Assembly: GCA_008632985.1 (NCBI GenBank)
Contig: QPGO01000014.1
Location: forward strand, 124,001-188,000
From: Psammoneis japonica
Taxonomy: Eukaryota
Direction of reading: 5' to 3'
Length of the DNA: 64,000 nt
The notes beneath the pieces are model-generated. The model did no database searches, was not told the DNA's origin, and saw only the letters and a list, made by a program, of their open reading frames with translations. This document shows, one piece after another, positions 24,300 to 64,000 of this stretch. Numbering within the stretch: position 1 is the stretch's first letter; every line of letters begins with the position of its first letter. The position numbers were made by a program, and so were the translations under genes.

Positions 24300-25490
24300 T
24301 CCGCCCCGCCCCCCCCTGCACTCAGCATTGCGGCAGCACCGAAGCCAGGACCACGGAAAGCAGGGCGATGTGGGGAAGTTTCGCAAACAACCAAGTGACT
24401 CTAGTAGAGAAACGTAATCATGCGTGCGTCCTTCACCAACTAGAAACCAACCAACACAAGAACCAAGCCCAAGGCACAGAATGATGATGATGAGAAACCA
24501 CTGATGAAGAAGATAAAGCTGCCTCCTTTTGTAAAGCATGTTTCAACAAAGCTTCCAATGGTTTGGCCTCCGCTCCTTGCAAGGTTGGCAGTGCCAAGAC
24601 ATGCACTGGAGCCAGGGCCATGGTCAGTGGAGTGATGTGGGGAGGGTCACAAACAACTGCAGCTGGAGAAATTTGGCCATGCATGTGGTCCTTCAACCAA
24701 CTGACGCAGGAGCCAAGCCCAACATGCACAGAGTGCTGATGACAAGAAACGGCTGGTGAAGAAGAAGCTGCCTCCTTTGGCAAAGTGTTTCAAAACCCAC
24801 AATTTGGACTCTGCTCTTTGCAAAGTTGGCAATGTCAACATGTGCATCTGCCTCCCTGCACCTGGCATTGTGGCAGCACCAGGACAGAGGTCAGTGTGTG
24901 TGAGGGAGGGTTCACAAAAACAGCTGAGCAGCAGCTGGAAAAACTCAACACCACGCACGTGGTCACCCTCCTGACTGACTGGAAATCAACCAATGCAAGG
25001 CCAAGCTCAAGATGTGGAGTGCTGATGACAAGAAACACCATTGAAGAAGAAACATCTGCCTCCTTTTGCAAGCACTTCAAAGGGACCTCTCCTGTGATTT
25101 GGGCTCAAATCCTTGCAAAGCTGGAAGTGTCAAGATGTGCATCCACCTGCCCCCACCCCCACCCTGCACTTGGCATTGTGGCAGAGCACCAGGCTGAGGA
25201 ACATGGTCAGCAGGACACTGTGGGGAGGCTCACAAACAACTGAGCAAAACACCAAAGAAACTTGGCTGTGAGGGGGCATGTTGCTGGGCCCTCCTTCACC
25301 ACCTGGCACCTGGAAACCAACCACAGCGAAAACCAAGCCCAAGGCATGGAATGCTGGTGTGATGAGAAACCACTGCAGTGAAGAATAAGTTGCGTTCTTT
25401 CATGAAGCATTTCAAAGCCTCCGATGATTAGGAATCTGCTCCTGCTCCCGCTGCAAGGTTAGCAGTGTGTCATGCAGTTCTGAAGTTGAT
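24300..25490. repeat. Degenerate tandem array of a ~270-330 bp unit (about 4 copies)
   Basis: Recurring block CCAAGCCCAA..GATGA(C/G)AAGAAAC..GAAGA..CTGCCTCCTTT..TGCAAGGTTGGCAGTG at ~24460, 24710, 25000 and 25330. Confidence 0.8.
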
Positions 25491-41300: not shown

Positions 41301-41650
41301 CAGAGCTGGGTACAAGTTGTGGCAACAGCTCCATTTCAGGGCAGGTGTTGTGCAGCAAAAAAGCTGGTCGCACGACTGCCCTCCTCAGATTTTTGCTGGG
41401 GGTGGCAGAGGAGAGGGTTGGCGAGGAGGTGCAGAACAAATCAACGCAACCTGGTCTGTGCCCCATTGTTGGATGTTTTTCATTTTGCACTAGCCCTGAT
41501 CAAGTGCAGAAACCAGTGCTGCAATGAGCACATCCACAACTTGTGCACGATGCAACAGTGCATGGTGGATGAGAGCACGCGGCCATGGCCAATGGGCTGA
41601 GTGCGCGCTGCTGCACGCAAAGACAGAGACCAAATGTGTTGCATTCAATG
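35360..41650. mobile_element. Degenerate repeat island made of two diverged ~3 kb related units, TpA- and CpG-depleted
   Basis: Matching blocks 35360-35580 vs 38180-38410, 36120-36170 vs 38440-38485 and 37350-37395 vs 38712-38762. Family not identifiable. Confidence 0.65.
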
Positions 41651-44878: not shown

Positions 44879-45399
44879 CTCCCTTGATAAAGGTTTCGTC
44901 GATGCCTGGTCGTGGGAGGTGGATTTGCGACCTGTTTGGCTCGACACGTGGGGAAAAAAAAACAGTTAGAAGTTAGTTACTTCACGCCACTATCTTCTTC
45001 GATCCAGTTCGCACTTTCTTTTGCTGCTCCGCTCGGAGAATGATTACTGCCAGTCTCGCTTTCGCGCCTACAACCCGTCACACGAAGCTCTTTCTCGGTC
45101 TCTTTTCACATTACTTTTTGCCTTGTTTACAACGATTGGAATGAATAGACGTGTCATACAATGCGGCGAACATGGCGTGAAGCTCACCTCAAAAAGTTAA
45201 ATGGATATGCTGGCTTGTCGAAAGCCACTTTTCCCGATAATCACATTGACAAGAGTTGCTTTTCCTTGCGCGGTGCATTGAGCCGCGTCATTTGTTACCT
45301 TTTGTGTGACAAGATGTCCTTGTCATCCCAAAGCTTGAGCAGCTTTCTGACAGTCAACAGTCCAAGTGTTCCAAGCTACACACTGCTGCATAGGCTGGC

Positions 45400-48300
45400 C
45401 ATGTTTGCCCAGGTCAGTCTGTCACTGATGTGGCATGGACCACTTTGAAACCTGTTCCAAGGGGGTTGCACCTGTGATTCCCATGGTGTGAACCCTCCTC
45501 CCACAGTGCATTGGTTGCTGCATCTGTGTTGATCATGCCTCTGGTTTCATTCGTGTTGAGCATCATCAAGTTACTTTCTTTGCTGTTGAGATGATGTGAG
45601 ACAAGAAGCATTCAAGAAGATGGCAAGTGGTCACAGTGTAATCTCATGTGGGAGCAACATGACAGTGGGTGCTCAAGGCCAACCAGTTTGAATCAAATGT
45701 GCCAGAAATGCTCAGCAGCTCATCCACCATTGCAGGGTCAACTGCCACAATCAGAGTTGTTTCTCTGAGTGCTCCATTCAGTGCAAATCTGAGCTGTGGT
45801 CCTTCACAAATCTGTTCACACCAGACTTCATCCTGCCAACATCTTTGCCAGATTTGTCATCCCATGTTGTTGTTTTTGCATGACTGCCATGCTTGGGGTG
45901 CCCTGTTCCCACATCTTGGAGCCCCAAGCTGCAGCAAAATCACAAGCCCCCTCTTTCATCAACAGCCATGGCCAAGATGCAGAGCATTTTGGGGCTTCAC
46001 CTCAGTCTGTTTCAGCAAGGTCCCACTGGCTCTGAATGAAAATGTCAGCTTTGTGCTGCACCTGATGATCTGTTCTCAATGTGAGCACATCAACCACAGG
46101 GGGATGCCCCACCTGTTTTGCACTGGGAAGACCTCTGTTTAGAGAGCTTCACCCAAGCACCATCAGACTTGTCCAATGGCTCCTTGTTCCTTCAAGATGA
46201 TTGGCTTGCTCCTGCAATTTTGAGCAGGAATTGCAGCATGAAGAGCGAGAGCACAACACCAGAAACTTGCCTCAGCAGCATGATGTGCCCAAGTCCTCCA
46301 GAGTTCCAGCACTGGCAGGAGCAGCAGAACCAAGGCCATTGGCCCCACCTCAGGAGCTGCCATTGCAGCCACCTCAAACACCCAGTCCACCAACAAGTCA
46401 GCAGCTGGCCCACCACTGTCTCTGCAACACATCTGCCCCACCTCCACAGGGCAGAGAAAACTGTCAAGACATTCCAGTCACATGCCTGACTGCTCCAGTC
46501 TCCACCGGTCAAACCCACAATGTGGGCTCACAAAGAAAGGGTGGGGGTGCATGCACATCAACTTATTTTGATGGCAAAGCTTGTCTGTCCTGAGCTGGGC
46601 CATCCAAAGTTGGAGCACAAAATGACCAAAACTTGCCTGCCTTGCTGAAATCCAGACCTGCCATGATGGCAGCATTTTGGACATTCAAAGCCCCAGGGTC
46701 TGTGCCACCAAGACAAAGAAAGATGGTGATGATGTGCCAAATGTGCAAGGAGTTTTCACAAGTGAGTTTGCAGAGCAGCATGCCGGGGCAATGAAGGCTG
46801 ATGTTGCCACATGTGTCCACTGTAAAACACAAAAAATGTCAAGCACGAGGTGTCCATGACTGCCGCGCTGAAGTCCACGATGGCTTTCAAGTTGAAGCAC
46901 CCACCTGGCAGGACTCTGCTGAAACTCAAGGCATGATTTTGTTGTCCAGGCAGGCTCAGCAGTTGCCAGCTGTTTGTCTGTTGTTGTGTGTTTTGCTGCA
47001 AGAAGGTTGTTGGACAACACATCAGGTTGACTGTGCAGGTGTGTGCTGCCCCCCCCCCCCCCTCCCACACACACACACTCACACACACAAGTGTTTTGGC
47101 CGGCCCCAGGAGCTCCAGCTGCAATGTTGTGCTGACAGGGGAGGCAGCTTTGCTTGCAAGAGCTGCAACCAAGGGCTTTTTTCATGTGGCCAAAGAACCA
47201 CACTGTTGCTGAGCATGGCGCTGGCAACACAAGCTCAAGAAGCTGACATTGTGCCCAGCACTCATCCAGTTCATCAGAGGTGGGGTGTTTGCAGTTTTTG
47301 TGTTGGTCCATTGGGTTTTGGCTCCTTGGGTGCAGGTTGACTCTCATTTGCTGCAACAAACCTGCATTTTTCTCACACAACCCCGCCTGACTCCTGCAGT
47401 CCCCACATGATTTGTGCAGAGTGGGGAAATTTAATTGGTGCCTCCTTGATTTAATTTGTCTGATTTTGCAAGAAACAGATGCATTCTTCCAAATTCTCCC
47501 AGTGGTCATCCTTCCCACGTGTTCTCTACACAGACATGCTGTGCAAATCACAAGCTCTTTTTTTGGTGATGCTGTTTCTTTTTTTTGCACAAATTGCCAC
47601 CTCTTTTTTTGTGCTGTTTTCCAACCACAACAAAAATTTTAACCTGCACCTCCAGTTGTGCCAATGTCCCATTCAGCCTGCAAAGTTTGTTCACTTCAAA
47701 ATTTTTGTTTTGTTCAGCTGGATCTGTGCAACAAAATTTCGCTCACAATTTCTTGCTTTTTGGCTCAGTTGCAGTTTCATTTTGCAACCGGAACAACACA
47801 TCTCCACACAGCTGCTGTGTCATGGGTCACTGTTCATCCCCTCCTGGCAATTTTAAGGTGTGCAGGGGATGCCGCCACTCTCATCCATCAAAACAGCTGT
47901 GGCAGAAAGCAGCAAAGAGGGTGCAGAAGGGAAGTTGCCATGTTGAGAACCATCTTCATCTTTTCACAGTTCTTCAGTGCTGCTTCAAGGGGTTGGTGCT
48001 GGAGACATCCAGTGTGCTGCCAGGGTCAATCTCATGCCCCCCATGCTTGCAAGGGGTGCAGCCGGTTGTTCTGTGCTTTTTGCTGGCTTTTCTGACATTG
48101 CTGCCAGGGTTCATCCCATTGCCCCCCTTTTCTGTGGGTGGTGCAGTGATGTCAGTGAACGTGCCCTTCAATGACTTTGTCAGGGTGCACCCCACACTCC
48201 CTCCTCACTTTGGGGACACAGCTGCTGGATCCTGCTTTTTAGGCTTGAAAGCCAGAGAGTGTGCAGCCAGGGTTCATCCCATGACTCCCACCTTTTTGGG

Positions 48301-50400
48301 GGGTGCAGCCATTGTGGGATCCCCCATTGTTTTTGTGTGGATGATTGTCATGATGCATTGTCCCATGGTTTTGGAGATGGTGTTGACATCAGTGGCATTT
48401 TTCTACAGACCACTTCACAGGCTTTGCCGTGGTTCATCCCACATCTGTCATGATGCATTGTTCCATGGTTTTGGAGATGGTGTTGACATCAGCAGCCTTT
48501 TTTTCTGCAGACCACTTTGCAGGCTTTGCCATGGTTCATCCCACATCTGTCATGATGCATTGTTCCATGGTTTCGGAGACAGTGTTGACATCAGCAGCCT
48601 TTTTTTCTGCAGACCACTTCACAGGCTTTGTCATGGTTCATCCCATGTCCCCCCTTCTTCTTGGAGATTGATCCACTCTGTTCACTGCATCTTTCCCCTG
48701 CAATCCCGCTGCATCTTTGCCTCCCACTTGCTTCAGCCTCTGAAGGAGCATTGTCTGTGCCCCAGATCCCTCACATGTCTGTCACTGTCCAAGCAGCACC
48801 TCCTCAAGCACCCACTCTCTCCTTCTCTCATTCCGGTGATTCATTGATTGGTTTGTCTGCAATGGATCCTGTCTTGAACAGCCCAGTTGTGTGCAGCCCC
48901 AAATTTCCCAATTGTGCCACCTGATCTCTTGTTGTGATTCCTCCAAAGCCACCAACCATCCCCTGGTCAGTGCCCACCCATGGAGAGAACTCAAGAACAT
49001 GGGGGTGGTGCATGAAGACCCCAAAAAATTGTGCTGGAAGAACATTTCCTCACTTTGCAAGCTGGGGTGCTGGGCTGGCCACAAGTGCTGCGTGCACATT
49101 GCTTGCATTCAATTCATGCTGCCTGATCTTGGCTGGGGTCAGGCATCCATTTGTGTTGATGGGAAGCACTGTCATCACATGATGGCACATTTGGACATTT
49201 GCAGGGCTGCTGTTGACTTTTGTCACAAAGCCAACATCTTGTTTGACATGTGTCTTCCAAACAAGAATCGCTGCAATGACAGCAGTGCCACAATTTGAAT
49301 CCCTGCCACCTCAGGGGTTTTTGCCTCAGTCACTTGGTGGGTTTGGCCATTGTGAAAATCAATGCCAAGCTTTGACATGAGAACAGGACCCCCCCCTGTG
49401 CTGCACTCAGCACTGCTTGTTTGTCCTCCTGACCTGTGAGGAATGACACAATGAGTGTTTCCACATGTGCGATGTCATTCTGCACAGCCAAGAATCTGAC
49501 AATGCAGGCTGCTCTCATGGAGCCAGGATGGGAGAGTGCTACACTGTGATTTTGGAAATGGCACCCATTGTCCCAAACTTCAAGAACTTGGGTGCAAACC
49601 ATCCAATGGGATTCCTGGCAACAACTGGGTGCTTGCCTTTCTGCTTCATGCATCTCACAGATGTCACAAAGAACAGAAAGGCAATGAAAGCTTGGACACT
49701 TCCCATGCTTCAAGAAAATCCATTGAATGCAGAGACAATTGGTGAAACAGTGGAGAACACAATGAAAAACATTTGTGCTGCCTTTGCTGACCAATCAGGA
49801 GAAATTGTCAGTTGCCGTGGTGATGAAAACTGAGTCTGCAAGGGCTGTCACACAGTGTGCACTGGGGACTCAGATGATCACTTCTTTGACATGGCTCATC
49901 TTGGTCAAAACCTGTTTGTTGCTAAAGAAGCCTTTGTTGAAGTCATTTCTGCCAACAAGAAAAACATTGGACAAGTTGTCAGGGTGAAAGGTGGCCTTCA
50001 TCAGACTGTGCCATTTGGTGGAGAACACATTTCCATTGTTGATTTCAAAAAGGCCTGTTCCTGCCTCTGGATGACAGAGAGATGGTCACGTTGGAAAATT
50101 CAACAATGAAATCTGTGAAAAACTTGATGATCCCAGGAGGAATGGTGCACCAGTTTGTCTGCATGCAGTGCCGGCTGTTGGCAGTCCAAACAGGTGGCTG
50201 CAGTGTTGCTTTTTGTTGGACAGAAAACAAACTTCTCTGCTCTCATTGGTTGGACCACCATTCTGTTTTTTAACAACCACTCAAGTGCACCCTTTGTTCC
50301 CTGCTTGCACTGCTGAGCTGGGATCTGCTCTGCTGGCACATGCACATCTGTGAACAGCTCCATCTAATCCATGTGTTTGTGCACGTCATGCACTCAGCAC
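45400..50400. mobile_element. Highly degenerate repeat-derived sequence, TpA- and CpG-depleted
   Basis: Same composition as the other islands, with broken protein-like frames. Family not identified. Confidence 0.55.
48346..48645. repeat. Tandem repeat of ~101 bp, 3 copies
   Basis: TGTCATGATGCATTGTTCCATGGTTTTGGAGATGGTGTTGACATCAG... starting at 48346, 48446 and 48548. Confidence 0.9.
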
Positions 50401-52439
50401 CTGGTCTCATGACATTGCTTGTCTCTCAACAGTGCTGTCATCTTGTGTGGTTTCCAAATGTGCACTCCAGGCTTGACACCTTCATGTGATGTTGGCAGAT
50501 CCTGCTCAAACAATTCACAATCTGGGTTGCCCATTTGTCACTTCTCTAAGATCTGTGACCTCATGAGCTGGTGGAAATTGTGGATGTGGTGCATCTCTCA
50601 TGCAGAGTTGTGCAGGGAAGTTGCAGCCACACTTGAATCTGACATGTGGAGTCAATGCCAGCAGCACTGCAGGACTGACCACAATTGGAATGAAAGATGC
50701 ACAGTGACCATGGTCAGAGACCATGACACTCCAGCAACTGGAGGGTGTCCCTGCAAATGGGGACCAAAGAAATCAAAGACCAACTCTCAAATGATTGGGC
50801 CCCCATGAACAATTGGGTGCTGATGCAAACACCCGAGGGAACGGAAGAATCAAAACAAGTTGATGGTGACATGGAGCCAATGGCATCCACCCCTCCTAAA
50901 CTCAAACCACCTTGGAAGAAGATGCAGCAACCGAGGTGTCATCAACACCAGCAATGCCCAAAAATCTCCTGGAAAATTGCCCCAACCTCAAGCCAGGCTG
51001 CCCCACATTCATCACAGCCAATCCCACTGCCCTGGACATGGTGGCGGCAGAGGCAATGCATTGATGATGTCACACACTGCAACAAGCACTTGTGCCACTG
51101 GTGCCAGTGAATCACAGAGAGCCCACTGCAGTGCACACCTGGTCCCTGGCAACCCGGGGCACAACCCATGCTCTCCTCTGGCACCCTTGACCACCAACAA
51201 TGCAGAGATGAGGACAACATGGAGGAGGACTCCAATCTGGTCCATGACATCTCAGACCAGAACAATTGCCTCCAAGAGAAGGAGGGTGGGAAGTCCCGAA
51301 ATGACTCTGACACTGCTCCAGTCACAGGAACCCCAAAGGACCAACAAGTTGTGAGCAACACAGGAAGCAGGCCTTCAACAGTGACCCAACCCAGAAGACT
51401 TGTGCAATGACTCATGCCAGCAGTGCAGGTTGCATCTAGAACCCACAAATGTGGGTGCATGCTCATCATCAAGCTCAGTGCAAAGAAAGAAAGAGCCAAT
51501 GCTGGGAAATGCCACATGAGATCCTGATGGAGATGTTCTCCATGCTTCAAGAAGCAGACACGTCTTGCATGTTGCATCCACCATGGAGGGAAGGTTTGAA
51601 CAAAAAATCTCTGTCCAAACCAGAGGGGTCACCCAAAAACAATGCCCAGATGTGGGGCCACATGCACAAGCACTGCATCATGGAAAAAGAGGTGGAGGCC
51701 TTCTGTGATGTCTTCGTTGGGAGCAACAAATCTCACAATGCCATTGTGGAGAGGATGCAAACTGTTTCTTCCAGGACAATGACATTGGATTGTGCCCCAA
51801 CTCCCCAACTCAGCTCCACTCCCCCTCAGGAACTCTCTGGGCTGGGTGGCTGCTCCACTGCTTTGAGGATCATGACCACGAGGCCCTCAAGGTGGCATTC
51901 CAGAAGGCCACAGGACAGGAAGTTTGCTTTAGATGGAGGAACATCAACACGAGGGACCCAGGGCAGAGGAGGGACATGACAACCAATGAAGTGCATGTCT
52001 TCAAGGCTGAAGCTTGCTCTGAGAAAGAGCATCAGGCAACAAAAGCTGTGCAGCAAATTCAAAGGGCAAAGTTGCTAAAATTGTCCCCAACCACAGGAAC
52101 ATCTTCAATGACAGGTCCAAGCAAGAACAGAGGTCAAACATCTTTGCTCAGTGGCAGAAGCTCAGGCAGAAAAGCAAGAACAGGCAACCTCAATCAACAA
52201 GACGTGTGGCTCAACCTCACAACCATGGCAATGAAAAAACCAGAGTGCCTGCTTCTGGCTCTGACAATCTTGGAAAACCAGGCAAAGTGCACAATGGCCC
52301 CAGCACTCAAAAGAGGCCTCCCCAGTGCTGGCATGTGCAGGAACATGACCAGGGATGCAGTCTGCAGACCACTCACATGCCAAGGGCTTGGCACAAACCA
52401 CCTCTTCATCACCAAAGCAATCTCTCAAATTGGAATGAT

Positions 52440-52717
52440 TGACAGAAATTGAAGGCAAATGGCAAGAATTCAAACAACAACTCCTCACTGCTGTCTAAAT
52501 GGCAGATGAGTCTCTGCTCAGAGACCATTGCAGGAGCCGAAAGATGTGCAAGTCAGTGCAATCGGGCTGCTGTCATTGTTCTTGTGAGCCGTGTGGCTCG
52601 AAAGCAAACTGCATCGCGCGTGCACGCGCGGAGCTAAAGAGCACACAAAACTGTGCGCGGCAAACTAAACAGCGCGCAACATGTCGCGCGCACCCAAATC
52701 CTGTTCAAATCCTGTCA
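52440..52717 (-). repeat. 3' LTR (278 bp)
   Basis: Direct repeat of 60979-61233 and adjacent to the polypurine tract. Confidence 0.93.
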
Positions 52718-52719
52718 CT

Positions 52720-55700
52720 CCCCAGTTTGCTTGAGGAGTCACAGAAACAGATTCGACTTTGGATGGAATGAAGTTCCAGAACATGAGGGGGCGGAGAAGG
52801 TCCCAGACTTGGGAGCAACCCCAATGCTTGCTGAGAATGTCAGCAGGGTTGCGGGAGCCTTCGATGAAGTGGAGCTCAAGGTGACCAGAGGCAATTGCCT
52901 CGCACACGGTGGAATGATGGTGCGGTGTGTCGCTTGTGTAACTTGGAGTGCGGGATGGTGGCACTGTCTACAACCGACTTGTTGTCACCGAACATGCAAC
53001 TGATGTCACGGATCGGGACGCCGAGGCAGCGCAGGGTGATGCGCAGGTCGACAATCTGCTCGACACAAGTCCTTGCGGCAACAAATTCAGACCCGCAGGT
53101 CACAGTCTCCATGGTGGCTTGCTTCTTAGAGAACCAATCAGCCGGGAATTTGTTGAGGAAGTGGAGCATTCCCATGACAGAGCGTCCGGTGAGCATGCAA
53201 TGATGCAAGTTTGCATCGACGCAGTGGGTGGCAGTGACAAACTTGCCAAGGGGCGGTGGAGCGTCCTTCGGGATCATCTCTTCTGCTTCGCCGTACACGG
53301 AATGCATCCATTCATGGGCCGGAGCAGGGAGATCCAAACAGTCGGGCTCTTCCGTGCGGACGCGGAGAGCGCCGTGTTGCATCTTGGAGAGGCAACCACA
53401 GATGCGTTTGGCACGATCCAAGTGGCCTTGATGGGGTGCAGCTCGGAAGCTAGAGAGTGACATGACGGCCGTGGCAATGTCAATTCGACCAAGGGACACT
53501 GCCCATTGGAGGGAACCAACAAGAGACTGGAACTGTTGAATGCCATCGGGCCCCAGCAGTTCGGAAGTGTCCATTTCGGGGTGGTCACCCTTCTCCAGAG
53601 GGGACAGGGCGTTGGTGGCAGGTTTCTCCCCAAACAGTCGTGTGCAGCTGTCGACCATGCATTCGATGTACTTGCGCGGAGACAGGCACAAGGTGCCATC
53701 AGGATCCCGGGAAAAGTCGCAGCCTGGATGGAACTCAATTGGTCCCGCACCCTTGAGCTTGAACTTGCACTTTTCTGTGAGAGTGTCGACGAAAGATTGA
53801 GGGTCCTTCATGGCAATGGCGAGGTCATCCACACAAACGGCAACACATTTGCAGTGGTCGCCGTTCCTGTGCATCCAAATGTCGGGTTCGGCGCGGCAGG
53901 GGAAGAAACCTTCAGCTCGCAGGCAGTCGGCAAAGCGCTCGTGCCAGCGGAGGCCGGAGCTGCGCAGTCCATGCAGGGCCTTGTGGATGACAAGAATGTG
54001 GCCTTCGAGTTTGCCAAATTCGGGTCCAGCTGCAATGTGCAGCTTCTCCTTGGTGGTGGCTTCAAGGTGGGCATTGCCAATGTCGGTGGCCCATGTCTCC
54101 AACTCGCTGAGTTCGGCCAGGAAAATCATCAGCCGAAGGCAACAAAGGGAGACTGCTCCGGAGCAGACACTGTCAACAGGTACGTCCGTGAGGTGTCCAT
54201 CGGCTGTGAGCCGTGCCTTGTGGCGGCCGTCGTGTTTCACGTCGCACACTGGGTGCACTCGGATCTTCTTGTGTCCCGCAGGAGGAGTGGAAGACTCGGA
54301 GGGCCCGCAGTCATGAAAGACTTCGTATTCATCGAGTTGGTCCATCTCGAGATTAGTTGTGTCTCCCCATTTGCGGTTGCCGTTGCGTTCGTCTAGTGAC
54401 ATGGCGTGTTTGTAGTTCCGGGGAACTTTGCATCCGCACTTGCAGCGAGGTGCAGTGTGGAAGGAGCAAAGCTTGGCTTGGTTGGCCATGCGGAGTGGCT
54501 TCTTCTGGCGCCTCGCGATGGTGCGGAACCGCTTCCAGCCATCAGTGTTGAGAAGTCCGTTCTCTTGTGCATGGATGGTGCAGGTGACAGGGTTGTCCTT
54601 GGTGATGATGGCAAGAGGCTCGGACGTGATCTCCCCACTTTCCCATTCAAGCACAATGTTGTAGCTTGAGCCTTTCCAGGTTGGGTCATGAGGCTTCAGA
54701 GGTCCTTCGTGTGACACAATGCATCGAAATTTCCAAACAGTGGTGTCTTCGTCTTCTTGCTCAATGTGATTCATGATGTCGTTGCAGGCCAGGACTTCCT
54801 CGCATTTGTCGTTGTTGACAGAGCAGACACACTCAGTGAGCTCGGGGTTGCCGTTCACTTTCCAGTCATGATCTTCAACGGCCTTGACGATGCGAGCTCT
54901 GTGGCATTGTCCGTCCTCTTGTGGCTGCATGAGGAAGGCGCATCCGATGATGTCTTGCGGATCAAAAACTGGCATCTTGGGTGTCCTGATCTCCCCATCA
55001 GGTGAATTGACGGGGTTGTCATCATGGCGAGATTTGATGATGGGTTCAGGTGGCTCCCCATCAGGAGGATCAAGACGCAGGTTTTGAACGGAAGGATCGG
55101 CAGCAGCAGAACGTACATTTGACCAGTGGAGGATCTTCTGAGTGTCATCAGAAAGAATCTTAAAGGTCATCTGGTGGCCGACGTGCTCAGCAATTCCAAC
55201 AAAGTGTCCACGCAACTCACGGGATTCGGACGGCCAATCAGAGTCATCGAGGTGGAAGCACACAGGTTCCCACCAGTGAAAGCGAAGCAATGGGCTGATG
55301 TCCGGGGTGGAGCCAGTGAGAGTCTTGAGGGGCGTGCGCCAGTGGAGACGTGGGGATGCTGTGTGGTTGAGTGTGAAGCACACGCACATGAGTGCCAGCA
55401 GCCATGTGTGGGCAGGCGAACCGAAACGGTCCATGACGGTGTTCGCCATGCGCTTCATGGTCTGGTGTTGACGTTCGGCAAAGTTTTGGTGTTGCTGGTG
55501 AGGCTCGCTTTGCCAGCTGGAGACAAAGAGGGCTCATGGAATCCCAAGCACCTTGTTGCTGATCTCAACTTGAGCACGGATCCTCGAGTGTGTTGACAAA
55601 CTCCATGTCCGTTTTGGTGCCGTAGACGTCAGTGATGGCAGACTCGGTGCCAACAAACAGTTGGGCGCTGGTGCAACCAGAGTCAACGGCCAGGGTGTCG

Positions 55701-58301
55701 GCACAAACGGTGTCAGTGGCGATGGGCTCGTTGTGGCGGTGCACATTAAGGGTGGGGTTGGGCGATTTGCAGGCCTTCTTAAGGTGCGCACCGGCGGGCA
55801 TGCGGGCGCATTGCGTGGTGCAGTCGAAAGTGCGACGAACCGTGTCGGCAGGTTGGAAACCAAAGCAGGGCCGAAGAGACTCGTGGGGGGGGGTCCGTGG
55901 GCTGCACATTGCACTCCAGAGGCGGAACGTCACCATCCTTGGGGTCAATCGTGTGCAGATGACACTCGTAGAAGACGTCTTCATTCAGAATGAGGTGGTC
56001 ATCGAGGGCGGACGCGTGATCAGCAGACAAGGAGGCGGACATGACAGCCTTGTTGACAACGACACGGTGACGGCAGTTGCCGCACTTGTCAAACAGGTTG
56101 GCAGTGGGATCGTCCTGCAGGTCCGAGATCGCATCGCACCACTGGTCGTCGTCAGTGACAGAGTGATCGAGGACGGAAGGGTCCCATGTGTCATTGCCGG
56201 TGAGGATGACATGTGGCAGGGTGTCCCATTCGTCGTCAGTGCAGGGCCGCATGGCAACACAAGGCAAGCCACCCTTGATGTCAATTGGGATGACACAGCC
56301 ATCAGGTGTGGCGATGCGCTGCAAGCCATTGGGCACCTTGACAGAGCGATCGTTGACATCGTGTTTGCACCATTCGAGCTGGCCACAGGAGTGAATGGTC
56401 TTGCCCTTTCCTGTGCATGCGTGCTGATGGAGGATGGCGACAACGGGACCACGCTGTGTCTCAATGATGGCACCAGCGGTGACAATGGGGATGTCCACCA
56501 ATTGATGGTCATCAATGCCCTGAACGTCGACTTGGCGAGAGGTGCGCGCAATGACGCGAACGTTGTCGCCAGCAATGCTGCCGTTGGCTCCACGATCGAC
56601 TGGAGCACCAGTGCGTGTGGAGTGATGAGCGGAGGCAGAACAAACGACATTGTGGTTGTTGACGCAGCGGCAAGTGCGGCCATTGAGTTCCATGTTGTCT
56701 GGAGGAGTGGGCGAGGCAGAGGGAGCGGCGGATGGGCCCGGTCGACCAGCTTTGGGGGCTTGGTTAGGGGACAACAGGTGTTGCAGATCACCGGGTGGCA
56801 GTGGCCTGCGCTTGGTGAGATGCGCCAGAATGGGATTGTCTGAAGTGGCATCCCCAGGCGGGGCGGGATCACCAGAGTCAGCAAGAGTCGTGGCGGACAA
56901 GTTGACATCACCGTCACTCCCAAGTCGTTGGTCGTGAAGGTTGACCACAATGGACTCGTGCCAGTTGCTGGCTCGTGGGTTGCGAGGAGGCGGACGAGAA
57001 TGCTCAAGGATGATCGCCTTGGAGGAATGGGGCAATGAATCCCAAATCCGTTGGTGGTCGGGAGGGAGACGTTTCCATTGGTCGCCGGTGAGGCTGGGAC
57101 CGTGGGTGCAGGCAGCGTGAGCCTGAAGGACGTCAATGTTGCTGTCGATGTCATGGAACACATCATCGGATGGTTCCTCGGAGCAGACGTCATGTGCGCA
57201 TGTGGCGCGGCGGGGAGCTCGAGGTGTTGTCTTGGGTTGAAACGTGCTGTCACATTGAGCCGCCGCGGAGAGGAGCAAGCCACAATGTTGATCGCATGTG
57301 AGGCTCTTGCCACTCTGCGTGCGATGTTGATCAGCTTGGTTCTTGACGGCGCGGAGTTCCTCGACAGGATGTGCGGCATTCTCGAGCATGACGCGCTTCT
57401 GTCCTTCAGAGAAGTGGTCACTGGCCGGGATGAGTGCCTCGCACTTGTGCAACTGATCCTGCCAATGAAGGATGAACCCATGGGTCAGACCTTTCCAAGT
57501 GCCATCACCAAGGCGTGTGGTGGTGAGGTGCGTGAGCAAGGTGGAGGACTCGACAGAGGCGTGGGTGGAGGCGAGCGCACACTCGGACAAGGAGCGGCAG
57601 ACGGTCTGGGCATCAGAAGACCCCACATTTTTGCGAATGAGAGCTTTGCCCTTGTCGGTGAGAAGGATGCATTCGAAGACGGCGAACATGCACTTTTGTT
57701 GTTCAGCAAAGAGCAGTTTGTCTTCGGGGGTGGTTGGTTTGTACGACGAGTCTAAAATGCACTCGACGTCTTGGGCACGGGCTTGTGCCACAAGTGAGGT
57801 GTGCCAAGTGTGCCACTGCTTGTCGGATTTGAGAGCCGTGAAGGCAGTGGGGTCACGCTTGATGCCTCGCTTGAAATCTCGCACTGGGTCGCGTGCCTTG
57901 GTCGGGTTGGTGACATGCGGAGGTGCAAGAGGTGAGCTGCCGACGGACACAGAAGACATGCAGTCGGGGCTGAGGCAGCAGGCAAGGAACTCATCGTGCG
58001 TGAACAACGAGGAGTCATTGGCAACATCAAGGCCTTTGTGTGCTTTGACAATGTGCAGACCAACTTGAGCTGCTGACATGTTCTTATGACCTCGGGGCAA
58101 TGGGATCACATTGGTGCTGTCATCGCACTCAAGCGAGTCGATTTGGGAAGGTGTGAACGTGAACAGTTCTTGGCATGAGTCCGTGCCGTCATGGGTCAAA
58201 GCCAAATGAAGAGGGCTTCCAGCACCTCGGGCAAGCACAGTTCCAACAACGTGCTTGAAACCATCGGTTTGTTGCTGACGAGTGAGAACCATGGCAGACA
58301 A
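52720..58301 (-). pseudogene. Copia gag-pol pseudogene
   Basis: Gag FKRGIKRD, protease VDRGANG, integrase ATDT/SEPHQQHQNFAER, RT DVKHDGRHKARL/DIGNA/CVDD and RNase H VDAN/SEFVA/GDN/NPADILSK. Disrupted by frameshifts (~55890, ~52895), a short deletion (~55580) and a TGA stop (~55535). Confidence 0.93.
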
Positions 58302-59075
58302 AGACGGTGTCAGGACAAGCGATTCTTGTCAGGATGCGGAGGCAGACTTGAAACTTGAGTGGAAATGGACTTGACTTGAAATGGACTTGACTTGAAATCT
58401 TGAACCATCTTAAAATCAGAAGTTGCCGGGTTGTGTCATCCCGCTCGTTGTCAAGTGCTAAACTTCCCATCCGGTCTGCAGAGTTGTGCTGGCACGTCCA
58501 AACCCGCAGCCAGCAGCACTTTGGGTTGCTTGCGAGCGGAGCAGCGGGTTGTGAACCCCTGCAGGTGGGCTGACTGGAGGTGGACAAGACCCCCGAACCG
58601 TTCTCATTTTACATCGGTCAGATTTCCCGATCAGGCTGGCCAGTTGACGCAGGCGTTGGGCGCTGTGGACAAACAAACAAACGCGGGAAAACACCCTCGC
58701 CCCAACGCAGGGGCTGCAATCACGGCCACTTGCTCTCACAGTCGTCCTCGTGGACCCAGTGGAACTGTGGAGCACCAGCAGTCCGGGGCAGATCAGGTGC
58801 AATGGACTCGGCGTGCTTGTAGAGTGGCAGCAAAGCCGCAGTCCAAAGAGTGGGTTCAAGTTCTTGGCCGTGAAGACATGTGTGTGCATGTGTCTTCAGC
58901 GATGATGATCCTTGAACATGCAGGGTTCTTGACCGTTAACCATTGAATGGGTGCATCAAGGGATGAGGATCAAGGACAGACTTGGACACAACCGTTGAAT
59001 GTGTGTCTTCAGCGATGAGAAGTGGCACAATCAATCCAGACATCCAGCGGTGAGGAGACTTGATGGTGACGTTAA

Positions 59076-60819
59076 CGGGGACCCCCCGCAAGTCTGTACG
59101 ACCATCCGATGGAGCATTTTTTGCGAGTGAAACGCAACCCTTCTCGTGTTGTCACCGCGATAATTTCCTTTTCAGTCTGTTGCATGCCAACCTTGTTGTA
59201 GCTGTCCTGCTGGCGATCCTTTTCAACAAATCGTTTGTTCTGCTCCTGTTGCTGAGGTTTGGTCAAAACGATCGCCAGCAGAAAGTGCGTTTTGACAACA
59301 ACAATTGTGTTTCTGAATGTCGACGTTGCCAAGCGCAGTGATGCTCCAAACTCCTCCAAGCCCACCCAAATGGAAGAAAAAGCTGACGAAAAGAAGCATG
59401 CAATCCCGGTGCACAATGTGTGGTGCTGGCATGGAAGAAACCCGGGGTTTCAGTGCCAGGAGTGAGTCACAAAATGTTGATGTTCTTTGTCATGTTGTTT
59501 CAATGTCTCGCATCTCACAAACATTTGTTTGGTCATTGCAACTGTCCAGCTGTCATTCCTTTCCTGTGAATCATTTGTTCTGCTCCCATTGATGAGTCTT
59601 GATCAAAAGGATTGACAGCAGAAGGTGTCATTTTATGACAACAATTGTGTGTCTCTGTGTCGTCATTGCCAAGCAGCGATGCAACAATCGCCTCCACCAA
59701 TGCCACCCAAATGGAGGTAAAGCCAATGAAAAGAAATGGAGGAAGAAGCGCAAGCAGGAGATTGCAATGCCCCCAAGCTGTCTCTTTGTCACTGAAGAAG
59801 CTTTGAATGTGAAAATGACCACAAATGGTGTCTTTTTGCGGATTGGTGGTGTCAATCAAATGTGCGCACATTGTCAGAGGTGCCAGAGACCAAAAAAGAA
59901 TGCCAAACTTTCTCCTGAGGGATGTTTGCAATGCCTGACAAATGAAGATCTCCTGCCCAATGCATGTCATCCTCCAAGCTGTCTAAACCTTTCTGGTCTC
60001 ACTTGCCACCTGGCCAGCAAACTGTCATTGAACAAATCGTTCTTCCAAATCAAAGGCCACGTGGCGAGATTTGCAGGGAATGGAACTAAGGGAACTTTGA
60101 AACTGAATCCGTTCTCACACTGTAGTTCTCTAGCATGCCTTGCTTCGTCTATTTTCGTCTCCCATCGCGCAATGCTGGAAGCTGTGAAAGCCCAACAAAG
60201 ATCTCCTGCCTCATGCATGTCATCGCTTGTCCAAAGGACACGACACTTTTTCTCCTTTTGAGCAAATGACACCTGGTGGCTTTTCCAAATCATCACTGTC
60301 ATGCATTTTTGAGTCTCTTGTTTTACCAGTTTTTGCTGCTTCATTCAAAAATCGGTCGCTGGGGCCCCAAATGATGCGCACCAACAGCGAGCAGGTCACG
60401 ACAACTCTCTCGTTGTTGTTGCTTGATTTTCGACCGACTGTCTTTCCTCCTCCTCATTGGAAACAGAATGAGTCTCACCGCTTTATTTTGTTGCTGTTTG
60501 CTTGCATCGGTTGAGTGACAGCAGTGCTTGCCGCGGCAGTCGTCTTTGCGCAGAACAACTGAATTTGAGGTGCCTTTGAGGGCGGACGAGACATCGGACT
60601 TGTGGAGTCCTGGAAAGCCACCACGTTGTAATGCCTTCAGCATAAGGTCACCATCCATCCATGTGCACCGCAACGTAGCCGGAAAGGCGGTGACAAGAAG
60701 CCTTGCGGCCTCTGTAATCTTCATCGTTGATTTGCTGTTTTTGTGATGGAAAAAATGCAGCGCATTTGTCATGGAGCGGAAGCAGCGCGGACAACGTACA
60801 GACTTGCGGGGGGTCCCCG
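59076..60819. mobile_element. Non-autonomous DNA transposon with 25-bp perfect TIRs, TTAA-flanked, nested in the Copia leader
   Basis: TTAA|CGGGGACCCCCCGCAAGTCTGTACG ... CGTACAGACTTGCGGGGGGTCCCCG|TTAA. Internal ~170 bp duplication (59230 vs 59570). Confidence 0.88.
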
Positions 60820-60978
60820 TTAAATTCCTGCCGATGCCTGGCATTGAATTCGCGCAGACTTGCCGATGTGCGTAGAACATGTGCGGAGGTCCATGCAGAA
60901 TTGAGGTGGCGTCGTTGGTAAATCAACGACGACGATGGCGGTTGCTCAATGGGTTGACAATGAGCAAGACTGTCAATC

Positions 60979-61233
60979 TGACAGAAATTGAAGGCAAATG
61001 GCAAGAATTCAAACAACAACTCCTTGCTGCTGTCTAAATGGCAGATGAGTCTCCACTCAGAGACCGTTGCAGGAGCCGAAAGACGTGTGAGTCGGTGTGA
61101 TTGGGCTGCTGTCATCATTCTTGTGAGCCGTGTGGCTCGAAAGCAAACTGCATCGCGCGCGCACGCGCGGAACTAAAGAGCACACAAAACTATGTGCGGC
61201 AAACTAAACAGCGCGCGACATCAAATCCTGTCA
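60979..61233 (-). repeat. 5' LTR (255 bp)
   Basis: Direct repeat of 52440-52717 that lacks 23 bp. Confidence 0.93.
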
Positions 61234-64000
61234 ATGATCATGAAACACTCCCAGCTTGGCACTGTCACTGGTGACTTGTTGGTCAAGGCCAACCTTCAAC
61301 AGCATCAGTTAGAACTCAGGCTGCCAGGCCAATTTTTTGACAACAACTTCAACGAGTTTCGCCATCTTGCCACTTGCTTCTGGACCAAGGATGCACGGAA
61401 ATTTCCATCTCTAAACAACACCAGGATAGAAGCAGATCTGTGGACACTTTCCCTGCACTGGGAAAATGACAAGTTCCTCATCAAAGAGTTCCACAGAGCA
61501 GGTTTCCAGGGAAAGAAACTGGCCCGAATCAGTCTCTGCAAGCTGCACCTGTGTGTCAACACTGTTTCTGACATGGTCATGGACAATGGAAGGAGGGTCC
61601 TTCAAAATCATTGGAATGGGCAACTGGGCCTGCCAAGGCACAACCCCCATCATGACAATTGGACTGGCTGGAACAGGGCAACCCCTCACAGAATGATTGG
61701 AGAAAGTGGAGAGAGGTCTTAGAAACAGTCATTGGACCACAGAAATCTGTCATCAATGACCTGTTGCAACAGCAGATGGACAACCTGTTGCACAAATGGC
61801 CACATTTCCTGTTCGTTGTAGAGCAGTGGGTTTGCAAGCACACCCAAGTGGGAAACTGGAGATGCTCTGCTTCTGTTCTAGGTCACCCAACAAGAACAAT
61901 GAGTTCTTTGTGTTGCCACTGTGCTGGAGAGACCAACAAACTGCCAGACAACCTGTTGAGAACAAGAATTCATGGGAACGACACAGCAATGATGTCAACT
62001 GGTGTTGTGCAGAAATTTGGTTGCACAGAGCCGTGTGCCCCAATGAATCTCTAGGAAGCAATTGACAGGCTCCACGCAGACATCAACTGGCTGGCAGAAG
62101 ACTTCAAAAATGATGATGATGGCACTGAGGTTGCTTGCACAACCTCCAAAGGAACTGCCACAGTGACATCTGATGAGTCTCATTTGAGTGGCAAAGGTGC
62201 ATCTGCTTGGACCACACAGGGAACCCAGGATGACCACAAAACTGAAGGCATGAATGCAGCAAGAGGCAACCCTTCCAATGTGAATGTGTGCCAAGCAGAA
62301 ATTGTCAGACAACTGTGATGACATGCATCATTTGCGATTTTCATGATGTCACCCAGGGACAGGTTTCTCTTGGATGTGACAGCAACCAGGCCTTGAAGAG
62401 CTCCAACAACCCTGGGTTGCAAACTCACCAAAAATCAAAAGCAGCGCAATGTGTTGTCAGCACTGCACTCCTGGATTCAAAAATCACAGGTGTGATGGAC
62501 CACTGTCAACATGAAAGGGTGCATGGACAAAATGACATTGCCTGCAAGGACCCAGACCATCCCTCCAGGCTAAATGCAGACATGGACTCAAGGGCCAAAG
62601 AATGAATGGCTGACATGCTGAACAATCCCACCTGCACAGCAAGTGCAGGTGGAAATGTGGTCACTTTGGATCAGAAACAGGAAAGTCATGTCCAATGCTG
62701 CAGATTCAATGCAACATGCAACCAGATGGCAGGAAAATGCTGCAGTGCTGAGCAGAAAAAGGGAGATTTTCCTCACTGAGCATCAGAGACGTCAGTTGGG
62801 ACTTCCAGGTAAAAGCGACATCCAATCTGACACCATCCAGACAACAATGGGCAGCAAAGCATGTGTCTGGATCATGCAGGGTCAACAAGATGCTGTGCAC
62901 ATGGGGCAAATCTCTGGCGCAGTCCTGCCCACAATGCCTTTTCCCCCAGTGGATGACTCAAACCACATGCTGGAATGTCAGGTGGAGAGTGCGGTGGAGA
63001 CATTGCACAACTGCTCAGCGACACTTCAAGAGTGGTTGTGCAAAGCAGAGATCAATCTAGAAATCACCAAAATCATGCTGCAGAGACTTCAGGAATGGAA
63101 AGAGGGTGTTCCAATGCAACAAATTCACTCACAAAATGATCTCATCTGGCAGGTGGTTGACTCTCAGGATTGGACAGGATGGGGCAGATTTGTTGAAGGG
63201 GGTGCATGTCTTTGGATTGGAAGTTTGCTCAGAATGCATGCCACAAATGGGCAAACTCCAGGAGACAAGGCCAAAGGCAGGTCAGATTTCTCATTGTCAA
63301 GGCTTGCAACGCATCATGGGACCAATGGGAACACCACAACAGCACAGTCCACCCGGCCAACATGATGCCAACAGAGGCACAAGCCAAAGCCATTCAGGGT
63401 TGGGTTTGAGGTGAGTTTGCATCAGGTCCTCAACAAGAACTTCCACCAATTGACATGAGGACATTCAAAGGAACTCTGGATGAGTTTTTGAGCAGCACTC
63501 TGGAATGCCTCCAAGCCTGGCTGAACAATGTGAGTGCAGCTCACAACTCTTTCTGATGACTGCAAGCAGAGCAACAACACCAGGCACATGAGCTCATGCT
63601 AGATTGGCTGCAGAGTGCCAACAACAACGTTCAACATTTACAATGAAGGGTGGGGCCTTCTTGTTGTCATTGTTCACATTTCATGTGGTTGATCCAAACC
63701 AGTTGGGTGACCTCTTCTGGAAACTTGGGTGATGTAAAAGCCATTTGGCAGTGCAACAAGCAGTGATCTTTGAGTCATTTGTTTGTTTGGGTTGCCCATT
63801 TGTTCTTGGGTTTTGACACCCTGTCTTGGCTTCTCTTCCTTGAGGGTGGGGCTGTCTTTGAACACCACAAACACCTTTTTTTGTCAAAGACACCACAACT
63901 GGATCAAACATGGGATCCCCAACCAATGTGTGTGCCTTTGCGTGTCATTCCAAAATGGTTGACTCAAACTGGTTGGTGTCTCTCTTTAGAAGATGGCTGC

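Follow-up and report, generated by a model that had tools for sequence, protein, structure and literature searches.

In the window, i.e. the whole stretch of 64,000 nucleotides analysed here, TpA dinucleotides have changed into TpG or CpA, and within a Copia retrotransposon this change postdates the insertion and hit each LTR independently. Both strands are affected, and the effect ends within about 100 bp of the neighbouring genes. As a whole, the data make it quite probable that non-genic foreign or mobile DNA underwent a post-integration TpA to TpG/CpA hypermutation, accompanied by a separate and slower loss of CpG. TpA-erasing hypermutation of mobile DNA has been reported once before, in an unrelated alga.

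Dinucleotide composition of the blocks and of the genes

Dinucleotide contents are expressed as observed/expected ratios (o/e), the expectation being derived from base composition, and TA (TpA) is quoted before CG (CpG). In four blocks, located at 24.55-25.3, 35.45-41.6, 45.3-52.4 and 61.2-64 kb, TpA o/e is 0.00-0.08 and CpG o/e 0.09-0.17, vs. 0.53-0.61 and 0.92-1.04 in the genic DNA of the window. The TA deficit is found in every block (Poisson p of 1e-27 to 1e-81 vs. the genic TA density of 36.6 per kb), while TG and CA are raised, to 1.8-1.9 in the old blocks vs. 1.45/1.57 in the Copia element, in agreement with the first-pass annotation, which had both losses converge on TG/CA. With TA o/e of 0.00-0.12 and enriched TG/CA, this DNA lies beyond the thresholds (Rho TpA ≤ 0.43, Rho CpA+TpG ≥ 1.52) of the preprint discussed below. 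Block borders are sharp, falling within about 100 bp in a 100-bp profile, and TG and CA are intermixed, with no strand runs (|z| ≤ 1.7). As for the flanking bases, ATA/TAT are nearly lost (3/57 in the old blocks vs. 556/1,258 in genes), the surviving contexts being TAA, TAG and TAC.

The smallest block (24550..25300; TA 0.00, CG 0.09) is a TA- and CG-free island made of diverged repeats of ca. 250 bp, whose self-matches (24445-24883 vs. 24695-25193) contain 12 CA/TG doublets; no array was detected in it by TRF. Block R1 (35450..41600; TA 0.05, CG 0.17, TG/CA 1.80/1.86) carries internal diverged duplications with 4, 17 and 2 CA/TG doublets, and none of its scanned ORFs gave a credible Pfam family match. 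R2 (45300..52434; TA 0.05, CG 0.09), the left flank of the Copia insertion, has 23 TA vs. 452 expected from base composition, and 11 of the 14 differences within its 102-bp tandem repeat (48,346-48,645) fall in YR dinucleotides. R3 (61239..64000; TA 0.08, CG 0.12) is the right flank and continues past the window end. The TA-poor texture first described for 45400..64000 is thus present there, and it recurs further out, at 35,450-41,600 and 24,550-25,300.

Altogether, 217 stop-to-stop ORFs of at least 70 aa were found in 29.5 kb, of which 190 were scanned with Pfam, and the sole credible match among these was RVT_2 in the Copia element. Concerning the R2 and R3 flanks, the Pfam scan of their ORFs returned no credible family match, although heavy mutation could mask a domain, and tblastn against Copia polyproteins gave 0 matches. 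The host sequence and the 45-52 kb relic had been described as having lost both TA and CG, which holds (0.05/0.09 in R2 and 0.08/0.12 in R3), but the label of "LINE" given to the host is not supported, as neither a reverse transcriptase nor an endonuclease family was found by Pfam in any ORF scanned from the flanks or old blocks. In the scanned ORFs of the window, Pfam recognised no deaminase domain.

An intact host gene, phytase-like / choice-of-anchor I (42425..44878, plus strand; 817-aa ORF, PF13449 3.8e-44), lies unmutated between two hypermutated blocks, with TA o/e of 0.53 and CG o/e of 0.96. Its nearest named relatives belong to marine gammaproteobacteria (ca. 55% identity). For a host gene, every named relative comes from a diatom.

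The Copia element and the timing of TpA and CpG loss

The element nested between R2 and R3 (52,440-61,233; TA 0.12, CG 0.78) is a Ty1/Copia LTR retrotransposon, with TG..CA LTRs, a 5-bp target-site duplication (TSD) and RVT_2 in a gag-pol polyprotein. It is on the minus strand, its 3' LTR (52440..52717, 278 bp) containing a 23-bp insertion relative to the 5' LTR (60979..61233, 255 bp) with which it is paired. The identical 5-mer ATGAT flanks both LTRs (52435..52439 and 61234..61238), which argues against a recombinant element and bears out the nesting proposed at first pass. So does its composition the claim that this Copia is CpG-rich and almost TA-free: its CpG shows no depletion compared to the genic density (p=0.31), and the CpG-rich stretch at 52,600-52,690 was found again, located in an LTR.

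The gag-pol region (52749..58292, minus strand; RVT_2, PF07727, 1.1e-18; TA 0.08, CG 0.79) is dead, with at least three frame breaks, YVDD changed to CVDD and Tyr codons turned into Cys or His. Its GC content is 0.566 vs. 0.49 in genes. The tblastn match to a full-length polyprotein (P0001, residues 1-1880) is split into four segments, integrase and gag were not recovered in the Pfam scan of the Copia ORFs, and the nearest named relative is a protein of Fistulifera solaris (53% identity).

Sequencing run X1, which is possibly the source of the window assembly and thus brings no independent support for the sequence, gave a summed depth, not to be read as copy number, of 40,000-130,000 for Copia vs. 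73-199 for R2 and 70-174 for R3. A 1.75-kb stretch (59070..60817, minus strand; TA 0.15, CG 0.68) is missing from most family copies: depth is only 397-5,972 there, and in contigs position 59,069 is followed by 60,818. Among family copies of the same run, 949 of the 1,184 variable places are transitions; of the 33 best-supported difference groups, 22 are changes from one YR to another, among them 4 CA/TG doublets and 3 places at which TA is still present in other family copies. The locus is present in the sequencing runs of one study only.

The two LTRs align over 255 bases with 19 differences, 18 of which are in YR dinucleotides (5 CA/TG doublets, 7 CG vs. TG/CA and 1 TA vs. TG among the classes), vs. 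1 change at 119 non-YR sites. CpG loss alone would produce 0.51 CA/TG doublets; since 5 were seen (Poisson p=1.9e-4), an ancestral TA must have been mutated independently in each LTR. Twelve CG/CG sites are kept, and the post-insertion loss amounts to ca. 95% of susceptible TpA and ca. 23% of CpG. With the low counts of a single LTR pair, TpA is estimated to disappear about 12 times (at least about 6 times) faster than CpG in the same element; CpG loss is itself about 50 times background, and this within-element comparison provides a first relative calibration of the three rates. A simple one-rate model fails, as TA is retained in both LTRs at three sites, all CTAAA, so that context matters. 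Moreover, LTR divergence is 7.5% overall vs. 0.8% at unaffected sites, and standard LTR dating would therefore overestimate the age about ninefold.

It had been suggested from the nesting order that TA conversion is faster than, and separable from, CpG loss. Both properties are retained here on account of the LTR pair; nesting order alone does not prove them. Equal scaling of the two losses, which had been named as the contrary outcome, was not found, CG o/e going from 0.78 to 0.09 while TA o/e stays at or below 0.12 in every block. The term "clock" used at first pass may be the wrong word, given the episodic bursts in the one experimental system.

Proposed process and alternative explanations

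The process favoured here would be a local DNA-level hypermutation in which TpA base pairs of either strand undergo A:T>G:C transitions, leaving TpA all but absent. In the same blocks, CpG would be turned more slowly into TpG/CpA, for which deamination of 5-methylcytosine is the most likely cause; the methyl part of this decay, already assumed by the first-pass annotation, is a probable reading of a mark that a sequence does not display. Both routes would end in TG/CA and hence give the TGCA-like texture noted earlier. The agent of first choice would be a chromatin-targeted DNA adenine deaminase, the resulting inosine being read as G, as proposed for the chlorarachniophyte Bigelowiella natans. 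Such a process would presumably act as a genome defence, by destroying the Tyr codons, and with them the reverse transcriptase active-site motif, in each new copy. The flank preference weakens the specific guess of a deaminase: ADAT acts on A34 after U33, followed by G, A or C, and ADAR disfavours a 3' U, unlike the loss of ATA/TAT found here.

A different chemistry with the same outcome is unlikely, though it is the most serious competitor: either a lesion on the thymine of TpA, e.g. hydroxylation to 5hmU mispairing with G, or T:G repair biased towards C:G. TpA being its own reverse complement, A to G in the second position and T to C in the first are inseparable on sequence alone, and all the counts given here fit either reading. 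The early loss of ATA/TAT, which departs from ADAT or ADAR flanks, also speaks for this alternative; in dinoflagellates TpA is a site of 5hmU enrichment, and the rarity of CTAG in E. coli is classically ascribed to VSP repair. A 1000-fold, burst-like rate, as measured in B. natans (Mettrop et al., bioRxiv 10.64898/2026.01.13.699255), would on the other hand be more readily attained by an editing enzyme than by biased repair. Less likely still is a single deaminase acting efficiently on the A of TpA and inefficiently on the C of CpG, instead of methyl-CpG decay. The two losses do have blocks, borders and products in common, and the same preprint (10.64898/2026.01.13.699255) mentions that amphioxus ADAT2 edits DNA at both A and C and that ADAT2 of Trypanosoma is able to deaminate both RNA (at A) and DNA (at C), a dual activity that would suit such an enzyme. 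Against it, LTR retrotransposons of the diatom P. tricornutum are reported to be cytosine-methylated, in a CpG context according to preliminary bisulfite data (PMC2806351). Furthermore, related Copia elements of other hosts combine low CG with normal TA (TA/CG o/e of 0.57/0.10 for L072 and 0.85/0.35 for L068), and the repeats of L078 have undergone 27 CG losses with 41 TA/TA sites kept; CpG decay thus exists without the TA process.

Known A-to-I editing has a UA>UG-like preference, and the element is a retrotransposon, so that ADAR- or ADAT-like editing of a transcript before reverse transcription, passed on by copy-and-paste, could be imagined. It is very improbable: both LTRs are copied from one template and yet are 5 CA/TG doublets apart, both strands are affected (Tyr>Cys 7, Tyr>His 4) without strand runs, and the same signature is carried by blocks that show no retroelement features and have roughly single-copy depth. 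A native composition or selection that kept the elements always TA-poor, e.g. through a UA-cleaving RNase or stop-codon avoidance, has practically nothing left to commend it apart from the under-representation of TA in genes too. Of 15 conserved-Tyr columns in a homologue alignment, the Copia copy has Cys in 7 (TGY), His in 4 (CAY), Tyr in 3 and Phe in 1, vs. conserved residues kept at 38/38 Gly, 28/28 Pro and 9/9 Trp, and the reverse transcriptase active site is among the conserved sites where Tyr was replaced; a second alignment, of 11 homologues and 22 Tyr columns, gave Cys 11, His 4, Tyr 4, Phe 2 and Trp 1. Accordingly, Tyr, Cys and His make up 0.6, 4.5 and 5.6% of the copy vs. homologue medians of 3.8, 1.2 and 3.1%. 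TA o/e is 0.31-1.06 in the related pol regions, 80 in all, vs. 0.11 in the Copia copy, and 11 related elements with LTR-like repeats show 0, 0, 0, 0, 1, 0, 0, 0, 0, 1 and 3 CA/TG doublets, with 4-130 TA/TA sites kept. The Tyr columns, the relatives and the post-insertion LTR doublets refute native TA-poverty of the family, a possibility raised at the outset, for the Copia though not for the old blocks. Finally, modified bases can give systematic errors on some sequencing platforms, but an assembly or base-calling artefact is scarcely credible: contigs of run X1 (k-mer depth ca. 60), perhaps the assembly source, match the flanks with 0-1 differences per piece of 370-2,582 bp, TG or CA occurs at the same site in different copies, and the changes are coherent at the codon level.

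Comparison with known systems and significance

Post-integration hypermutation at TpA, the reading retained here, has its closest counterpart in B. natans. According to the main text of Mettrop et al. (bioRxiv 10.64898/2026.01.13.699255), integrated viral DNA undergoes there a TpA-restricted A:T>G:C hypermutation: 230 of 231 de novo mutations were A>G or T>C, all of these on TpA, at a rate ca. 1000-fold above background, in some lines only and in episodic bursts. Reverse transcriptase and DDE domains were also reported to be over-represented in the TpA-poor predicted CDS of B. natans. The resemblance lies in TpA>TpG/CpA on both strands, with TpA loss and CpA+TpG gain confined to foreign DNA next to normal neighbours, the changes being observed de novo in B. 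natans and reconstructed from history here. The differences concern the host, which groups with diatoms (stramenopiles) and not with Rhizaria, the targets, an LTR retrotransposon family and further blocks vs. NCLDV or virophage, the saturation of the depletion (o/e of 0.05-0.12 vs. 0.45 in the B. natans NCLDV region), and the post-insertion timing, obtained from an LTR pair vs. mutation-accumulation lines. The main text of that preprint contains neither "CpG" nor "context", while its supplementary tables may hold context data; what is added here to its account is the second lineage, the LTR retrotransposon target, the flank preference and the timing vs. CpG decay.

Fungal RIP in ascomycetes is likewise a transition hypermutation of mobile or foreign DNA that kills copies and distorts dinucleotides and GC, but it converts CpA into TpA, at the expense of GC, whereas the process here destroys TpA and raises GC. 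Identity with RIP was rejected, the C:G>T:A direction being absent and TpA being destroyed with TG/CA enriched. R2 and R3, at about single-copy depth (70-200; a present-day depth, not a copy number), are affected as well, so that a dependence on duplication is not evident. As for 5-methylcytosine decay, its CG>TG/CA changes confined to non-genic blocks account only for the slower of the two signatures. APOBEC3 and ADAR footprints in animal retroelements are similar deaminase-type, context-specific transition clusters; they arise before integration, on cDNA or RNA, and are strand-asymmetric, in contrast to the post-integration, strand-symmetric changes described here. Compared to Ty1/Copia elements of the diatom CoDi-like type, with which it has RVT_2, TG..CA LTRs and a 5-bp TSD in common, the present copy is dead, its codons having been altered by hypermutation.

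It is a tentative possibility that distant SAR lineages (a diatom-like stramenopile and a chlorarachniophyte) have in common a chromatin-guided DNA-editing defence specific for TpA, the mirror image of RIP. If such a defence exists, every new insertion, whatever its copy number, would become TA-free well before CpG decay or ordinary mutation shows, and LTR-based insertion ages would be inflated by an order of magnitude. TAA and TAG stops would be lost, leaving GC-enriched, six-frame-open DNA that misleads gene callers and could seed genes, and the ATA/TAT-first preference would point to an enzyme other than ADAT/ADAR or to thymine-directed chemistry. In the TA-free DNA studied here, TAA/TAG triplets are already about 5-fold fewer, making its 217 stop-to-stop ORFs a source of false gene models, and similarity-based domain searches are defeated by the hypermutation, as integrase and gag illustrate. 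Should the process be genome-wide, this would be a second major eukaryotic lineage that defends its genome by mutation, in a direction contrary to that of RIP; diatoms being ecologically dominant and transformable, the editor could be sought by genetics.

Dinucleotide landscape and the nested Copia element

As a whole, the window has a G+C content of 49-50%, an observed/expected (o/e) ratio of 0.37 for TA, and ratios of 1.38 for TG and CA each. The TA shortage is concentrated in blocks, whose edges are sharp to about 100 bp in a 100-bp profile: R1 (35,450-41,600; TA o/e 0.05, CG o/e 0.17), R2 (45,300-52,434; 0.05 and 0.09), R3 (61,239-64,000; 0.08 and 0.12) and the Copia element between R2 and R3 (52,440-61,233; 0.12 and 0.78), vs. 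0.55-0.61 and 0.92-1.04 in genic DNA, and 0.53 and 0.96 in the intact 817-aa gene between R1 and R2. Set against genic TA density, the block TA counts give Poisson p-values of 1e-27 to 1e-81, while the CpG density of the Copia is not lower than the genic one (Poisson p = 0.31). Along the window, CG o/e grades from 0.78 in the Copia through ca. 0.27 at 35.5-38.5 kb to less than 0.12, TA o/e being 0.12 or lower throughout this gradient, and no low-CpG block with normal TA occurs within the window.

The pattern described by the first-pass annotation, a CpG-rich yet TA-poor Copia between older flanks low in both dinucleotides, was thus borne out. It had been placed at 45,400-64,000, where the texture is indeed present, but it is not confined to this stretch, since it recurs in R1 and in an island at 24,550-25,300. 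This 750-bp island, located between two genes, has no TA and five CpG (o/e 0.00 and 0.09) and consists of repeats of about 250 bp, 67-72% identical, with 12 CA/TG doublets (CA in one copy, TG in the other); no tandem array was detected by TRF at 24-26 kb.

Nested between R2 and R3 is a Ty1/Copia retrotransposon in minus orientation (RVT_2 Pfam match, 1.1e-18), with minus-strand LTRs at 52,440-52,717 and 60,979-61,233, TG..CA ends, and identical copies of a 5-bp target-site duplication, ATGAT, flanking both LTRs. Given this nesting, R2 and R3 are the two parts of a single older sequence that the Copia interrupted. By tblastn, the full-length relative P0001 (residues 1-1880) aligns in four segments, from 58,292 down to 52,749, which implies three or more breaks in the frame. 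A 23-bp insertion in the LTR at 52,440-52,717 duplicates the terminal sequence of that LTR. A 1.75-kb stretch at 59,070-60,817 is absent from most family members, the depth falling about 100-fold and contigs skipping it; it contains a diverged internal duplication (59,196-59,395 vs. 59,536-59,735, 74% identity).

As for the older blocks, the first-pass annotation had labelled the host sequence of the Copia a LINE. Between 34,500 and 64,000, stop-to-stop ORFs of 70 aa or longer number 217, with all six frames open and ORFs of 400-860 aa overlapping on both Copia strands. A Pfam scan covered 190 of them, the other 27 being in the host gene region at 42.4-45 kb, at 33.7-34.5 kb (two) or, as small overlapping ORFs, inside the Copia. 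RVT_2 in the Copia was the sole credible match; three matches below the curated cut-offs (E 0.004-0.008) were judged to be due to chance. No reverse transcriptase or endonuclease family was matched by any scanned ORF of the flanks or R1, and no Copia remnants came up in the old blocks when 11 Copia polyproteins were used as tblastn queries, for which reasons the LINE label was dropped as unsupported.

Direction, timing and rates of TA loss

Both LTRs of one insertion are identical at integration. Those of this Copia now display 19 differences over 255 aligned bases, 18 of which lie within pyrimidine-purine (YR) dinucleotides, including five CA/TG doublets, seven CG vs. TG/CA and one TA vs. TG; outside YR, one difference was found in 119 sites. 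A doublet implies that an ancestral TA or CG was altered in both LTRs, differently. With 12 CG kept in both LTRs and seven half-lost, the CpG loss per LTR is 0.23, from which only 0.51 doublets are expected (p = 1.9e-4), indicating that the five observed come from TA. Solving for TA puts its loss per LTR at about 95% among some 11 susceptible sites; three further TA survive in both LTRs, all in CTAAA. The first-pass annotation had proposed to set TpA and CpG loss against divergence at other sites: done within this one element, the comparison yields exponential rates about 12 times higher for TA than for CpG, or about six times with a lower value of 0.77 for TA loss. The rate for CpG is itself ca. 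50-fold the non-YR rate, a figure based on a single non-YR event.

The codons of pol tell the same direction. Its ORF contains 0.6% Tyr, 4.5% Cys and 5.6% His, vs. medians of 3.8, 1.2 and 3.1%, respectively, in 150 database relatives. Conserved-Tyr columns were defined as Tyr in at least 70% of at least eight aligned homologues, 40 of the 150 being used. Among 15 such columns, the Copia copy has Cys in seven (TGY), His in four (CAY), Tyr in three (all TAC) and Phe in one, while other conserved residues are retained (Gly 38/38, Pro 28/28, Trp 9/9, His 11/11, Lys 10/10). A second alignment, with 11 homologues, gave Cys 11, His 4, Tyr 4, Phe 2 and Trp 1 over 22 Tyr columns, and the RT motif YVDD has become CVDD. 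Both TA>TG and TA>CA are present on the coding strand. Concerning conserved Arg, four of 25 were changed, to His, Cys or Trp, and these changes mark CpG decay.

Repeats within the old blocks carry similar differences. The 102-bp tandem repeat of R2 (48,346-48,645; about three copies, 92% identical) has 14 differences, 11 of them YR-to-YR and eight accounted for by four CA/TG doublets, and one internal repeat pair of R1 has 17 doublets; by comparison, two genic paralogue pairs have three doublets in 182 differences and five in 223. Surviving TA are rarely in ATA/TAT (3/57 in the old blocks and 8/55 in the Copia vs. 556/1,258 in genes; Fisher p = 1.7e-10 and 5.5e-6, respectively), and CTAA and TTAA are over-represented among them. 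TG and CA are intermixed, no strand-coordinated tracts being found by a runs test (|z| at most 1.7). From genes to old blocks, TAA drops from 7.9 to 1.6 per kb and TAG from 8.8 to 1.3, whereas TGA increases; it is because of this depletion that long ORFs are so numerous in all frames, and TA-free DNA with long open frames is a trap for gene callers.

Family copies and related elements

The locus was matched in four sequencing runs, all from one study and none listed as RNA. At 80% likeness or more, the summed depth is 42,726-130,816 over the Copia interior vs. 70-200 over the flanks, although depth should not be read as copy number. Transitions make up 949 of the 1,184 variable places in run X1. 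The best-supported 40 of its 1,209 rows of differences were grouped into 33 sites, 22 of them YR-to-YR: CpG is lost in the window but kept in most copies at 11 sites, kept in the window with CA in other copies at three, and CA/TG doublets occur at four; TA is still present in other copies with TG/CA in the window at three, and kept in the window but lost elsewhere at one. The commonest likeness class is that of contigs 90-95% like the window (4,844/12,491), which is roughly what independent saturation alone would give, as an estimate rather than a test. No empty-site contig spanning the insertion was seen among the 15 of 129 joints listed.

The Copia family is not natively TA-poor, as indicated by the conserved Tyr replaced by Cys or His and by 80 related pol regions from metagenome contigs, whose TA o/e ranges from 0.31 to 1.06, none being near the 0.11 of the window copy; the scan pattern and score ranking for these relatives favour little-mutated copies. 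Many combine low CpG with ordinary TA (TA/CG o/e of 0.57/0.10 in L072, 0.85/0.35 in L068 and 0.86/0.33 in L071), so CpG decay without TA loss is common elsewhere. LTR-like direct repeats were present in 11 of 43 related loci of at least 5.5 kb; these pairs have 0, 0, 0, 0, 1, 0, 0, 0, 0, 1 and 3 doublets and keep 4-130 TA/TA sites, the two most diverged being dominated by CpG loss (six CG vs. two TA losses in L019, 27 vs. eight in L078). The two losses do not scale together: the window copy has lost TA with only slight CpG decay, many relatives show the reverse, and this is a double dissociation. Three pol fragments belonging to different Copia families, with 50-55% identity to the window pol and originating from ENA and JGI metagenome assemblies, are also Tyr-poor and Cys/His-rich (Tyr>Cys + His in 9 + 3 of 13 columns for P0068, 3 + 4 of 10 for P0137 and 5 + 3 of 11 for P0038), which suggests the same process in environmental organisms.

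Host, mechanism and precedent

Host genes are dense, with long ORFs. For an NMNAT/PncC-like ORF, all nine organism-named matches among the 120 listed are diatoms (Striatella, Thalassiosira, Cyclostephanos, Attheya, Detonula and Asterionellopsis; 30-46% identity), and Fistulifera solaris, also a diatom, is the source of the one organism-named Copia relative; no informative lineage signal came from an atlas search with a host ORF of 680 aa. The host is accordingly placed as a diatom or close ochrophyte relative, kept broad because the identities are modest. The phytase-like/choice-of-anchor I gene at 42,425-44,878 (+) looks like an old bacterial acquisition, its nearest named relatives being marine gammaproteobacteria at about 55% identity (Paraglaciecola, Agaribacter, Teredinibacter, Oleiphilus), with one eukaryotic transcriptome protein at 56%; despite its foreign descent and its position wedged between hypermutated blocks, its TA and CpG are normal. 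Two adjacent paralogous ORFs without Pfam family (17,526-18,458 and 19,144-20,118, both minus; about 65% DNA identity) and an internal duplication (69% identity) in the Ank/EF-hand gene at 7502-9289 were also observed.

Judged from sequence, the change runs from TA to TG/CA, followed integration, affected both strands, is local and preceded CpG loss. The editor would be a chromatin-targeted DNA adenine deaminase, but, TpA being palindromic, damage directed at its thymine or a bias in T:G repair fits equally well. The ATA/TAT preference is not among the known neighbour rules of ADAT or ADAR. Editing of the RNA before integration is contradicted by the differences within the LTR pair and by strand symmetry. 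It is unlikely that a single enzyme produced both the TA and CpG signatures, relatives showing CpG decay without TA loss. An artefact is also unlikely, accurate X1 contigs matching the flanks with 0-1 differences, even if X1 may be the source of the assembly itself.

A precedent exists in the chlorarachniophyte Bigelowiella natans (bioRxiv 10.64898/2026.01.13.699255), where, in mutation-accumulation lines, two integrated viral regions received 231 of the 302 nuclear point mutations that arose; 230 of the 231 were A>G or T>C, every one of them on TpA, and they were seen in 11 of 15 lines. Reverse transcriptase and DDE domains are over-represented in its 324 predicted CDS with low TpA, and an ADAT2-like protein is the proposed editor; the words "CpG" and "context" are absent from the main text of the preprint. 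Within the openly searchable full-text literature, this preprint was the only account of TpA>TpG/CpA hypermutation retrieved, and a term search of two diatom transposon papers, one of them PMC2806351, returned no mention of TpA or hypermutation. In the latter, LTR elements of P. tricornutum are described as cytosine-methylated, with a CpG context indicated by preliminary bisulfite data.

The view that TA loss is faster than, and separable from, CpG loss is therefore supported by the LTR pair, the codons and the relatives, and the observation behind it is confirmed. Two terms of the first-pass annotation go too far, LINE and "methyl", a role of methylation in the CpG decay being putative. "Clock" is nevertheless a loose term, as the TpA process may act in bursts. 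In comparison with B. natans, the lineage is different, the target is a retrotransposon and TA loss is saturated; on its sequence features, the window is a second, saturated instance of this type of process, and what it newly provides is a first relative calibration of TpA loss against CpG decay.
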